DNA of 64,000 nucleotides, taken from a virus (Duplodnaviria; Caudoviricetes). Numbering within the stretch: position 1 is the stretch's first letter; each line of letters starts with the position of its first letter. The notes beneath the pieces are model-generated. The model was given only the letters and a program-made list of their open reading frames with translations, was not told where the DNA came from and did not search any database. Where the stretch lies: positions 38,900 through 102,899 of IMG/VR virus record IMGVR_UViG_2934336660_000001; one strand, written 5' to 3'. Made by a program: the position numbers and the translations under genes. Positions 8,501 through 10,661 of this stretch are shown here, one piece after another.

Positions 8501-9373
8501 TCAGCCCTGGAGTCGCTTGGCGAGCGCGTCGGCGACCTGCTCGGTGAGGGCCTTGGGGATCGCCTCAGCGATGCGCTCCGGGGTCAGCCCGGCCAGCACC
8601 CCGGCAACGATCGCCGGCTCGTCGGTGAAGTCCTTCCCGGCGAGCCCGGTCAGCGCTGCCTGGATGGAGCTGAGCTGCGCCGCCATGGCCTTCAGGTTGT
8701 AGTTGCCAGCCACTGACGCCCCGGTGTCGTCCCGGCCGTCCGCGATCCGGGTGTAGATCTGCCCGATCGGGTTCCGGCCGTCCAGCACCGTGAGGTTCTT
8801 GTGGACGGTGGCCAGCCAGTTGTGCTCTTCCGGGGTCATGTCGTCGTCCTCCAAGAGTCCAATGGAGCTGAGGTAGCGGCGGAACAGGGGCCGCTGGTCG
8901 CGGCCGGCCTTGATCGCGTCGCGAAAGAAGCTGAAGTGGGTGTGCCAGCGGTGTGAGCTGTCGCCGCTGGTGCGCCGGCCGAGGCGGTCCCACCGCTTCA
9001 CCGTGCTGCCGTCGGGGCTGTAGATGATCTCCCGGATGTCCCGGGTGTCGGCCGCGCCCGCCGCGCACTGGCCCACGCACCAGAGCGAGAAACTGGGCAA
9101 GGTGTGGATCCGCCCGCCCGACGTGACGTTGAACTGGCCGACGTCCAACGCCGCCGCGTCCAGGGTCAGTCCGGCCCTGTCCCGGGGTGACTCGACCACC
9201 GAGTAGTCGCCTTCGACCACCCGGTCCGAGCCGCAGTGGTAGCCGCCTCGGTGAGCTGCATTTCCGACGATGCCGACCTCTGCCGGCTCTAGATCGTCGG
9301 ATCCGGGAGCGTCGTCTAGGTGATCAAGCAGCAGCTTGCGTACCGCCATCAGGTTGGCGGGCGCTCTGGTCAT
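8501..9373 (-). CDS. endolysin, probably a Zn peptidase (M15-like)
   Basis: GGYH..ALD..HxH (HRWHTH) metal-ligand pattern; EDDDMT linker; helical C-terminus; upstream of membrane genes. Confidence 0.7.
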   Translation of the reverse strand: MTRAPANLMAVRKLLLDHLDDAPGSDDLEPAEVGIVGNAAHRGGYHCGSDRVVEGDYSVVESPRDRAGLTLDAAALDVGQFNVTSGGRIHTLPSFSLWCVGQCAAGAADTRDIREIIYSPDGSTVKRWDRLGRRTSGDSSHRWHTHFSFFRDAIKAGRDQRPLFRRYLSSIGLLEDDDMTPEEHNWLATVHKNLTVLDGRNPIGQIYTRIADGRDDTGASVAGNYNLKAMAAQLSSIQAALTGLAGKDFTDEPAIVAGVLAGLTPERIAEAIPKALTEQVADALAKRLQG

Positions 9374-9935
9374 TGGTGCCCCCGTTCCGTCGTGCCTCGT
9401 AGCGGCGCTGGTTGTTGACCTTGCACTTTCGGCACTGCCGGCTCTTCCGCCCGCCAGTCTTGAGCTGGAAGTACGTGTTCTCCGGCGTGTACTCGTGGCC
9501 GTTCTTGCAGTGCGTGACCGGACCACGTGGCTCGGCAGGCACGTAGCGCGATCGGTTGTCCTCGCGGGTGCACGTGCGGCAGCCGGGGCGGCCCGAGAAA
9601 TACCGGTTCTCCGACCGGCGGTGACCGCGCAGGCAGTAGAGGCTGCGCGACCGGCCCATCCGGCGCAGGTTCTCCTGCCGGCTGACCGGCTCCAGGTGGT
9701 CGGGGTTGACGCACCGGCGGTTCACGCACAGGTGGTCCAGTTCAAGCTGGTACGGGACCGGGCCGACCAGCAGTTGCCAGGCGAACCGGTGCGCTCCGAC
9801 GGTTCCAGCGCCGGAGTTGAACGTGCCGTAGCCGTCGGAGTTGACGCTGGCGATCCATTCCCAGCAGACGCCAGAGGTGTCGACCTTGACCCAGAAGCGC
9901 TGCACGACTCGTGGCGACACCGTGGCGACGGTCAT
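9324..9935 (-). CDS. HNH homing endonuclease (HNH_3 type) with CxxGH zinc repeats
   Basis: RFWVKV..CWEW..GYG..AHR..LDHLCVNRRCVNPDHLEPVSRQEN; CLRGH and CKNGH repeats. Confidence 0.9.
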   Translation of the reverse strand: MTVATVSPRVVQRFWVKVDTSGVCWEWIASVNSDGYGTFNSGAGTVGAHRFAWQLLVGPVPYQLELDHLCVNRRCVNPDHLEPVSRQENLRRMGRSRSLYCLRGHRRSENRYFSGRPGCRTCTREDNRSRYVPAEPRGPVTHCKNGHEYTPENTYFQLKTGGRKSRQCRKCKVNNQRRYEARRNGGTNDQSARQPDGGTQAAA

Positions 9936-10285
9936 CGGACGTGCTCCCCGTACCCGTCGTTGCTGCACCCGCACGGGAGGTAGCCCCAGCGCCAACCTTT
10001 TGGCGCGCCACAAGCGGGCGGGTTGTCCATGTGGGTGCGCTCGGGGTTCGTCTCGTCCGGCTGTGTCGCAGGTGCGGGCGCGGTCACGAGCTGGCCCTTC
10101 GCGACCTCTTGGGTGCGTACTTTGCGGCAGGCAGCGCAGTGGATCCCAGGCGTCGGCTGTTCAACTGATTCAAGCGGGCCGTCGTAAAAACCGACGCGGC
10201 TGCAAAGTGAAGCGTTGTCGCGGTAATAGTGAGAGCGGCGTTCAAGCGGATGAATGTCGCCCCAACCCTCGGTCAAGCTGCGCAT
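9932..10285 (-). CDS. Cys-rich hypothetical protein
   Basis: RBS GAAGGGG; ATGA-coupled to the HNH gene. Confidence 0.55.
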   Translation of the reverse strand: MRSLTEGWGDIHPLERRSHYYRDNASLCSRVGFYDGPLESVEQPTPGIHCAACRKVRTQEVAKGQLVTAPAPATQPDETNPERTHMDNPPACGAPKGWRWGYLPCGCSNDGYGEHVR

Positions 10286-10300
10286 CTCGGCCCCTTCCGA

Positions 10301-10352
10301 TGGTGGATATCCACCACTGTACCGAGGACTGGACGTGGTGGATATCCACCAC
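10301..10352. promoter_or_regulatory. two palindromic operators
   Basis: TGGTGGATATCCACCA at 10301-10316 and GTGGTGGATATCCACCAC at 10335-10352, between divergent genes. Confidence 0.8.
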
Positions 10353-10365
10353 CGATACTCAGCGC

Positions 10366-10551
10366 ATGCCCAAAGACAGATCCGAAGACCGGCACACCAA
10401 CCCAGCCCACGTCATCCGACCGAACCCGCCTGAACTGTGGGAACGGCTCGGCGAAGCCGTGGGCCCGCGCAACCGCAGCGCCACCGTCTCCGACCTCATC
10501 CGCCGCTACCTCGACGGCGAGGCCATGCCCGAGAAGCCAGCCCGCAGCTAG
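10366..10551 (+). CDS. ribbon-helix-helix-like small DNA-binding protein
   Basis: HVIRP..PELWERLGEAVG..RSATVSDLIRRYL; GATACT 6 nt before the ATG. Confidence 0.7.
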   Translation: MPKDRSEDRHTNPAHVIRPNPPELWERLGEAVGPRNRSATVSDLIRRYLDGEAMPEKPARS

Positions 10552-10661
10552 CCGACGATGCCGACCTCGTCCGGGTCCAGGTCATCCGGGCCGGGGGCGT
10601 TGTCGAGGTGGGTGAGGAGCAGGCTGCGGGCGGCCAGCAGGTTGGCGGGGGCGCGGGTCAT
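10548..10661 (-). pseudogene. orphaned original endolysin 5' end (37 codons)
   Basis: MTRAPANLLAARSLLLTHLDNAPGPDDLDPDEVGIVG* with RBS GGAGG; paralogous to the endolysin N-terminus. Confidence 0.85.

Follow-up and report, generated by a model that had tools for sequence, protein, structure and literature searches.

A probable homing cassette that carries its own replacement gene start, in the lysin gene of an actinomycete prophage

How can a gene for a homing endonuclease lodge in an essential gene without leaving that gene broken? To our knowledge, such nucleases are thought to persist in essential genes only by way of introns or inteins, or where the split gene reassembles. The question is raised by a prophage locus in the IMG/VR record IMGVR_UViG_2934336660_000001, in which the start of a probable lysin gene occurs twice, on either side of a group of small genes that includes an HNH endonuclease gene. 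We analysed positions 38,900 to 102,899 of the record (these 64,000 nucleotides (nt) are referred to as the window, and all coordinates are counted from its first letter). The reading that we favour, with more confidence than doubt but well short of certainty, is the entry of a free-standing HNH homing cassette at codon 37/38 of the lysin gene, which thereby received a diverged 5′ end.

The window is part of a high-GC actinomycete chromosome. A map of open reading frames (ORFs) and of the share of codons ending in G or C (GC3) places a tailed prophage on the minus strand, from about 6 kb to past 63 kb, and every named relative of the prophage genes comes from Micromonospora. Read along the minus strand, the tail genes are followed by an ORF of 156 amino acids (aa; p156), an SGNH hydrolase gene, a truncated lysin start that we call the stump, a gene for a ribbon-helix-helix-like (RHH-like) protein on the opposite strand, a pair of operator-like palindromes, a small ORF with a Cys/His motif, an HNH_3 endonuclease gene, the complete lysin gene and three small genes.

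The 5′ end of the lysin gene is found twice, at 10552-10661 and 9264-9373, with a distance of 1288 nt between the starts, as a preliminary description of this DNA had reported, and the two copies align over 110 nt at 76% identity (84/111 nt). The upstream copy, the stump (10548..10661, minus strand; delimited from its ORF and from the alignment of the duplicates), has a GGGAGG box in front of it and ends after 37 codons at a TAG; the palindrome CTAG holds both this stop and that of the opposite-strand RHH-like ORF. The downstream copy belongs to a complete gene of 290 codons (8501..9373, minus strand) with its own start and a purine-rich run resembling a ribosome-binding site (RBS), and the HNH ORF overlaps its ATG (9373) by 50 nt. 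One gene end is cut off by a stop and the other is in frame with the 290-aa ORF, which is the arrangement expected of gene-end replacement. The run of 17 identical nt to which the preliminary description drew attention, GAGGTCGGCATCGTCGG, is indeed present in both copies; however, it is identical or one base off in 30/30 aligned host-type homologues, and is thus a conserved block of the family and not a private recombination scar. The proposal that the start in use had been recoded purely synonymously is not borne out: 8 of the 37 codons common to the two copies differ in the residue that they encode.

The stump is most likely the displaced original start of the lysin gene. It agrees with an uninterrupted prophage allele (locus L243, in genome G218) at 101/111 nt (91%) and with the aligned host-type alleles at 60-89% (the best host alleles reach 89-91%), and at the protein level it is 92% identical to the phage alleles L255 and L258. 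Its ATG follows the stop of the SGNH/GDSL hydrolase gene (10672..11529, minus strand; Pfam Lipase_GDSL_2, E 2.5e-15) after 10 nt, and we regard it as the original start because the same spacing is found in two IMG/VR contigs (L261 and L265), where an SGNH homologue (54-55% identical) is followed about 10 nt on by an uninterrupted lysin gene. Such empty alleles had been predicted beforehand. The order of tail protein, p156 and lysin recurs in five or six further loci, and in a soil metagenome (run X3) two contigs join position 10551 to position 9253 with 9 nt (three ordinary codons) between them, and so represent uninterrupted alleles; other joints in that run, with short sides or low likeness, were ignored.

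The start that is in use has a different history. The first 126 nt of the complete gene (codons 1-42; 9248..9373, minus strand, the first 50 nt lying inside the HNH gene), which we call the module, agree with the empty allele L243 at only 90/126 (71%), and just past them the two gene bodies agree at 105/117. Among the host alleles the module has no good match, the best reaching 78-89% in windows of 45 nt, and an abrupt switch follows. The breakpoint is sharp, at nt 126/127, and nt 126 is also the final base of CGA (codon 42), with which the run of A/T-ending codons closes; together these place the limit of the insert at 9248. Judged from these alignments, the insert runs from the RHH-like stop (10551) to lysin nt 126 (9248), replaces codons 38-42 and duplicates codons 1-37. 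Its junction with the lysin lies inside the most conserved nucleotide block of the gene, beside the invariant His41.

A second carrier of the module was found with a degenerate pattern for VGIVGNAAHR, which gave no match in 274 other genomes of the genus and none in IMG/VR, and two in metagenome contigs, L240 and L239. The match in L239 is a chance one, in a frame with stops. L240, a contig of 3409 bp, encodes the C-terminal 65 residues of an HNH protein (93.8% identical to the one in the window), and these overlap the start of a lysin gene just as in the window. Over lysin nt 1-47 this HNH-linked allele agrees with the window at 47/47, against 33/47 for the empty allele L243, and over the whole module at 113/126 against 90/126. 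Past the breakpoint the difference is lost: the values for L240 and L243 are 87% and 90% for nt 127-243, 78% and 80% for nt 244-400, 79% and 82% for nt 401-600, and 67% and 54% for nt 601-873. The two HNH-linked alleles therefore share the module, and in their bodies they show no greater likeness to each other than to the empty allele; L240 also has three indels in the lysin body relative to the window and is without homologues of the three genes that follow the lysin there. The native copy thus resembles the uninterrupted relative (stump, 101/111 to L243) and the inserted copy is foreign to it and close to the other carrier. The linkage in L240 and the comparison with L243 bear out the earlier proposal that a pre-existing lysin gene was interrupted and that the complete gene uses a 5′ end belonging to the cassette.

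Three further database proteins carry the module (43-46/46 residues) with catalytic domains 71-85% identical and unrelated C-termini. With one case at the DNA level and these at the protein level, comparison of the sequences indicates that the HNH gene and the module travel together on a divergent lysin body. In 56 IMG/VR lysin loci we found no HNH relative upstream of the lysin and no second copy of its N-terminus. For a tree of the lysin bodies (the 140 residues after the motif) we took the best 120 matches of a search with the N-terminus, dropped five without the motif and kept 115. The signature GIVG-NAA-H occurs in 6 of these 115 relatives and requires 6 changes on the body tree, compared with a mean of 5.9 when shuffled; a single clade for it is rejected (log-likelihood difference 78.9; approximately unbiased test, p 0.007). 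In two of the relatives, P0093 and P0111, GIVG-NAA-H accompanies a different N-terminal type with a three-residue insertion, so the signature also occurs apart from the full module.

The codons of the module are unusual as well. In the complete lysin gene 28 of the first 43 codons end in G or C, against 232/248 in the remainder and 36/37 in the stump. Past the HNH overlap, in codons 17-42, the count is 14/26, and windows as low as this make up 38 of 11,346 (0.33%) across 48 prophage ORFs. The module codons of L240 are also GC3-poor (17/26 vs 234/254). The HNH gene itself, at 173/203, lies above the module, and the Cys/His ORF stands at 86/117. The preliminary description had pointed to rare codons in the complete copy, and the low GC3 agrees with it; some of the odd codons within codons 1-16 (e.g. 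GTA and CTT) are nevertheless forced by the overlapping HNH frame and say nothing about the module.

The nuclease gene (9324..9935, minus strand; 203 aa) encodes an N-terminal nuclease domain and C-terminal CxxGH/CxxC repeats. It matches Pfam HNH_3 (PF13392; E 1.3e-13, profile positions 2-46 of 46) and PHROG 826 (E 8.5e-55), and the stretch ELDHLC.NRRCV.PDHLEPV...EN is, by eye, retained in the relatives P0122-P0126, with substitutions in P0125. The gene forms an ORF by itself; it has a start of its own, and an ATGA overlap couples it to the ORF upstream. Two named Micromonospora records hold relatives at 74% and 66% identity, and the +1 frame of their C-terminal tails is compatible with a lysin-like start; this compatibility, which is no proof, suggests that the overlap between HNH and lysin genes is old. 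The best other matches are at 45-52% (in 150, then 274 genomes of the genus), 48-49% (IMG/VR) and 47% (genome contigs). No HNH relative was found in 274 other genus genomes at E<=1e-30, the cassette interior (query positions 151-1307) has no DNA match among the matches listed for 274 genus genomes, and none of the 80+80 HNH loci examined has a homologue of the lysin, the RHH-like protein or the Cys/His ORF beside the HNH gene. Pieces about 83-86% alike to the HNH gene, the 3′ part of the Cys/His ORF and the RHH/operator region are present in run X3, their mutual linkage being unread. Elsewhere in IMG/VR, an HNH_3-like gene, 33% identical, lies between a lysin gene and the gene for a 120-aa membrane protein (L268:6005-6604), and HNH genes may land repeatedly in the lysis cassettes of these phages.

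The other genes of the insert belong to families that also occur elsewhere. The RHH-like gene (10366..10551, plus strand; 61 aa) is convergent with the late operon, and its stop is the left junction of the cassette. Its ATG is preceded, 14 nt upstream, by two perfect copies of TGGTGGATATCCACCAC. These operator-like palindromes of 17 nt (10301-10317 and 10336-10352) fill the divergent intergenic region of 80 nt; the palindrome TGGTGGATATCCACCA occurs at these two sites only, in the window and in the whole 7.57-Mb genome, and shuffles give an expectation of 0 in the window. The putative regulator gene, its paired operator-like sites and the 50-nt HNH overlap are all present as first described. 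The protein itself has no Pfam match even at E<=10. Its family comprises 24 representatives at E<=0.001, and 3 of 23 members give weak RHH_1 matches (best E 0.0035). An AlphaFold2 (AF2) model (pLDDT 82) has an extended segment and helices at residues 23-32 and 34-50; Foldseek gave no match for it and the ESM Atlas only unnamed clusters. No relatives were found in IMG/VR. Those found elsewhere have TGGATATCCA palindromes upstream, and in two of them the called ORF opens with the translated operator. One relative, in G192 (L248:8359-8660), has three copies of TGGATATCCA upstream and lies between SSB-like and DnaC/DnaB-like genes (ORFs read by eye), a setting like that of an early regulator. On these comparisons the 61-aa protein looks like a phage-type regulator with its own operators, and not like one specific to HNH genes.

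The Cys/His ORF (9932..10285, minus strand; 117 aa), whose stop overlaps the HNH start in the ATGA, had been noted as a Cys-rich ORF; it is there, and the more accurate label is that of a small ORF whose C-terminus has a conserved Cys/His motif. Residues 2-64 of its product match PHROG 2358 weakly (E 1.3e-5), and its C-terminal 30 or so residues are common to seven small proteins. The motif ACGAP.GWRWGYLPCGC.NDG.G.H (3 Cys, 1 His; window 9932-10030) is invariant in P0238-P0244, which are otherwise unrelated actinomycete proteins of mobile DNA. No family name was found for this motif, and in IMG/VR it occurs at one unrelated, conjugative-looking locus (L250:3956-4150) with no HNH gene alongside. 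Since the RHH-like and Cys/His families both occur elsewhere without the HNH gene, the cassette is, as far as these relatives indicate, a composite and not a conserved unit. A consensus scan of 8200-11700 gave no promoter and no minus-strand terminator, and so no basis for naming a lysin promoter; the scan lends no support to the earlier suggestion that the lysis genes depend on a promoter of the cassette.

How might such an arrangement arise? The cassette would consist of the RHH-like regulator with its two operators, the Cys/His ORF, the HNH gene and lysin codons 1-42, and its entry would most likely have been by double-strand break repair. By analogy with established homing-endonuclease biology (PMC2988022), the HNH enzyme is predicted to cut uninterrupted alleles in the conserved EVGIVG-D-x-x-H block by the invariant His41. 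The break would be repaired from the carrier, with the right end pairing with the gene body from nt 127 and the left end keeping the recipient's codons 1-37, with which the module, at 76% identity, would pair poorly. The resident start would be left as a 37-codon stump behind the SGNH gene and the start brought by the cassette would be fused in frame at nt 126/127, so that the lysin would be whole without splicing. In the module, Asn-Ala-Ala in place of Asp-Pro-Ala, together with the A/T-ending codons, is predicted to destroy the cleavage site and to reduce deletion between the repeats. With almost all codons here ending in G or C, GC3 could only fall under selection for silent differences, and we propose that such selection is why the GC3 of the module is below that of the HNH gene. 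What the sequences show directly is the layout of the locus, the place of the stump, the breakpoint, the linkage of HNH gene and module on a second lysin and the sporadic occurrence of the element; HNH cleavage, the immunity of carriers and control by the RHH-like protein are steps that we infer. It may be speculated that this protein would silence the nuclease in lysogens, where a repressor could be useful because the host chromosome carries a paralogue that might be cut.

The alternative that survives best, to which we give a real though minor share of belief, is that the locus is a passive mosaic scar. In the donor the HNH gene would merely precede and overlap the lysin gene, a single illegitimate join would have linked resident codon 37 to the RHH end of the donor DNA, the stump would be debris, the differences in the module would reflect the divergence of lineages, and no part would serve to mend the gene or to withstand cleavage. 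Against such a join, the junction lies in the most conserved block beside His41, where a homing nuclease would be expected to cut, and the right junction is a sharp switch. Several observations nonetheless fit it and weigh against a homing cassette. The stump is documented once, the window being the sole carrier for which the DNA upstream was seen; the end of contig L240 falls within the HNH gene. The residue changes at 8/37 codons mean that ordinary divergence of the donor lineage explains part of the difference between module and stump, and low-GC3 starts are not unique, 5 of the 49 ORFs tested having 28 or fewer G/C-ending codons among their first 43. Against this, the GC3 of the module is below that of the accompanying HNH gene in both carriers. 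The argument from proteins that share a module on divergent bodies is weakened because conservation across the family is in any case highest at the N-terminus (P0006 vs P0007: 43/46 vs 108/129), and the tree sample was picked by likeness to the module N-terminus; the scatter of the NAA signature over the lysin tree speaks against a scar. The occurrence of the RHH-like and Cys/His families without the HNH gene, the former by replication genes in G192 and the latter in the conjugative-looking L250, would suit a random chunk of donor DNA, as would the mosaic nature of this group's phage genomes, with segments of the lysin best matching different host alleles, and the HNH_3-like gene elsewhere in the related lysis cassette of L268. 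The overlap of HNH and lysin genes, on the other hand, apparently persists to 66% HNH identity, which fits a nuclease specialised on the lysin.

A second alternative turns on the nature of the interrupted gene. We call the 290-aa product a lysin because of its position in a lysis cassette and because of weak fold evidence; it is probably a zinc peptidase that acts on peptidoglycan. The gene follows the tail genes and precedes genes for small membrane proteins, and relatives of it are present in 56 IMG/VR contigs, in several of which the gene comes straight after homologues of the window's tail genes. The product is 58.9% identical to that of an ORF in the Micromonospora phage pMLP1, and in pMLP1, as in G218, a homologue of p120 (one of the three small genes) follows. 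The protein has no Pfam or PHROG match, a sequence search of the PDB gave weak WD40-repeat noise only, and its AF2 model (pLDDT 76) has no match in Foldseek. The best match to the model, a weak one, is the zinc-binding C-terminal domain of pneumococcal VldE (VIA-align: Z 5.5, root-mean-square deviation 3.6, 97 residues aligned). H41, H46, H141, H144 and H146 and several Asp residues are invariant in 39 relatives, and the metal ligands may be among them.

The lysin family is also chromosomal. A copy is present in 134/150 other genomes of the genus, and in 29/29 of the best loci (L005-L033) the gene order is S15 peptidase, lysin-like gene, ArsR, MFS. The paralogue in the prophage's own genome lies on contig C8 (L004:7058-7939) and is 82% identical in protein to the prophage lysin; chromosomal members in general are 79-83% identical to it. 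Either the phage gene derives from this chromosomal core gene, or the core gene is a domesticated lysin. Over lysin nt 127-243 (9131..9247, minus strand), the prophage gene and the C8 paralogue agree at 116/117, against 76-94% in the remaining gene segments, and in the same tract the C8 paralogue agrees with its six nearest orthologues at just 104-107/117. The tract starts exactly at the module boundary and, on these figures, points to a recent gene conversion between the prophage lysin and the host paralogue, in either direction.

It might therefore be supposed that recombination of the prophage with the chromosomal paralogue produced the stump, or the whole gene, and that the nuclease had no part in it. 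The syntenic core gene, the near-identical tract and the identity of up to 89-91% between the stump and host alleles all speak for such a capture, which we consider improbable. The stump is unlike the copy of this host (61% over 114 nt, with a 9-nt insertion in the host copy), phage alleles are equally close to it (L243, L255 and L258), and it retains a phage-type position and spacing behind the SGNH gene. Capture from the host would also leave the cassette between the two copies unexplained.

Two other explanations are very improbable. Group I introns with HNH genes occur in the lysin genes of some Gram-positive phages, and the insert of 1.29 kb could by that precedent be an intron- or intein-like element, removed to join the stump to the lysin body; however, no intron or other RNA family was found by Rfam in 8000-12000 at E<=1, in agreement with the earlier view of a non-splicing element, the insert contains an opposite-strand gene, the stump ends in a stop codon, and the downstream copy is whole, having a start and an RBS-like run to itself; nothing would be duplicated by a join of stump and body, nor does an intact protein require one. 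A misjoining of reads from the prophage lysin and the host paralogue has in its favour that the lysin body (8576-9247) breaks into short alternative contigs in the probable source sample (run X1), as a two-copy sequence would, but a single contig of 35,076 nt from that run covers 9218-11700 (module, HNH gene, RHH-like gene, stump and SGNH gene) with 0 differences, so the cassette is not a misassembly, and the 5′ end of the host paralogue differs from both copies. No contig of X1 skips the cassette, which is uninformative on excision, as assembled contigs drop rare variants, and another run (X2) is equally uninformative, having four short contigs only (three at 10455-10735 and one at 8576-8637) at a depth of about 2-3.

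Returning to the homing cassette, its closest known analogue, by comparison of gene arrangements, is the fungal mitochondrial mORF, of which it would be the 5′ mirror image. In Allomyces macrogynus atp6 and in atp6, atp9, cox2 and nad3 of Glomus sp., such elements carry a foreign C-terminus of the gene and leave the native C-terminus downstream (PMC3630166). As here, a free-standing endonuclease ORF lies in a protein gene with no intron and is flanked by a duplicated gene end; the gene uses the copy supplied by the element, in frame, and has its native copy displaced. The supplied copy also diverges more: those of Glomus atp6 share 63.5% identity with each other, and one of them is 91.2% identical to that of a close relative (PMC3630166), and here the module and the stump are 71% and 91% identical, respectively, to the empty allele. 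The fungal elements replace the 3′ end whereas the prophage cassette replaces the 5′ end, so that it must supply a start codon and an RBS, which it does from inside the HNH gene, by way of the 50-nt overlap. Moreover, the fungal nucleases described there are LAGLIDADG or GIY-YIG enzymes and not HNH_3, and the prophage cassette differs in its temperate actinomycete phage host, in its divergent regulator with operators, and in that its mobility is predicted only.

Among phages, the T4-type seg and mob genes practise what has been called 'intronless homing', moving with flanking DNA and usually under tight control of expression (PMC2988022). They share with the cassette a nuclease outside any intron or intein, a sporadic distribution among relatives and co-inherited flanks. 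They differ in that they usually lie between genes and cut a neighbouring gene, with no duplicated end or stump described in the portion of that review consulted, and in that their control is by promoters, RNA hairpins and processing and not by a dedicated DNA-binding repressor. Two nucleases of this type have split the gene in which they lie: mobE, in nrdA of Aeromonas phage Aeh1, and mobA, in the T4 topoisomerase gene 60 (PMC2988022). There too an HNH-type free-standing nuclease sits in a critical conserved coding region with no splicing, but the gene remains in two pieces that reassemble, whereas the prophage lysin is made whole by a second copy and the stump is dispensable. In the actinobacteriophage ShiLan, an out-of-frame HNH gene lies within an in-frame insertion of a methylase gene (PMC11855218). 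This is again a non-splicing HNH insertion with overlapping frames of nuclease and host gene in an actinobacteriophage; unlike the cassette, it is translated in read-through, adding residues to the host protein, and is described without duplication, stump or regulator.

In the open-access literature searched, no phage case of gene-end replacement by a homing nuclease was found. Bringing along a spare, diverged copy of the gene end that is displaced is a third way to persist in an essential gene, known from the 3′ ends of fungal mitochondrial genes, and if the homing reading is true this solution is general and elements of this kind are one mechanism behind the mosaicism of lysins. There would also be a route by which a prophage nuclease drives sequence exchange with a host core gene. 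The GIVG-DPAH and GIVG-NAAH blocks, as substrates, make the nuclease and its target a testable pair. A broader reading, which we put forward tentatively and think rather less probable than not to be correct in full, is that this is the first phage or prokaryotic cassette seen to invade the 5′ end of a gene and rebuild it, with a recoded start nested in the nuclease gene and with no intron or intein; that it is silenced by its repressor in lysogens because its target family includes a host core gene; and that it is able to exchange sequence with the host copy and possibly to invade it. In that case the 116/117 tract at the module boundary would be a trace of exchange with the host copy.

Behind the lysin gene, tm70 (8260-8472), p113 (7824-8165) and p120 (7232-7594), spanning 7232..8472 on the minus strand, are likely the rest of the lysis cassette. 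The product of p120 is a membrane protein of 120 aa that matches PHROG 17055 (E 1.1e-10). Its homologue in the lysis cassette of L243 is 95% identical and is split in two frames at residue 54/55 (L243:6453-6811); the genome concerned, G218, is rated 39% complete despite 7.6 Mb in 2 contigs, which suggests many frameshift errors of assembly. The SGNH hydrolase may be a second lytic enzyme of the cassette. It adjoins the lysin in the window and in two IMG/VR contigs, and its closest relatives in the genus (56-61% identical) are lone host genes.

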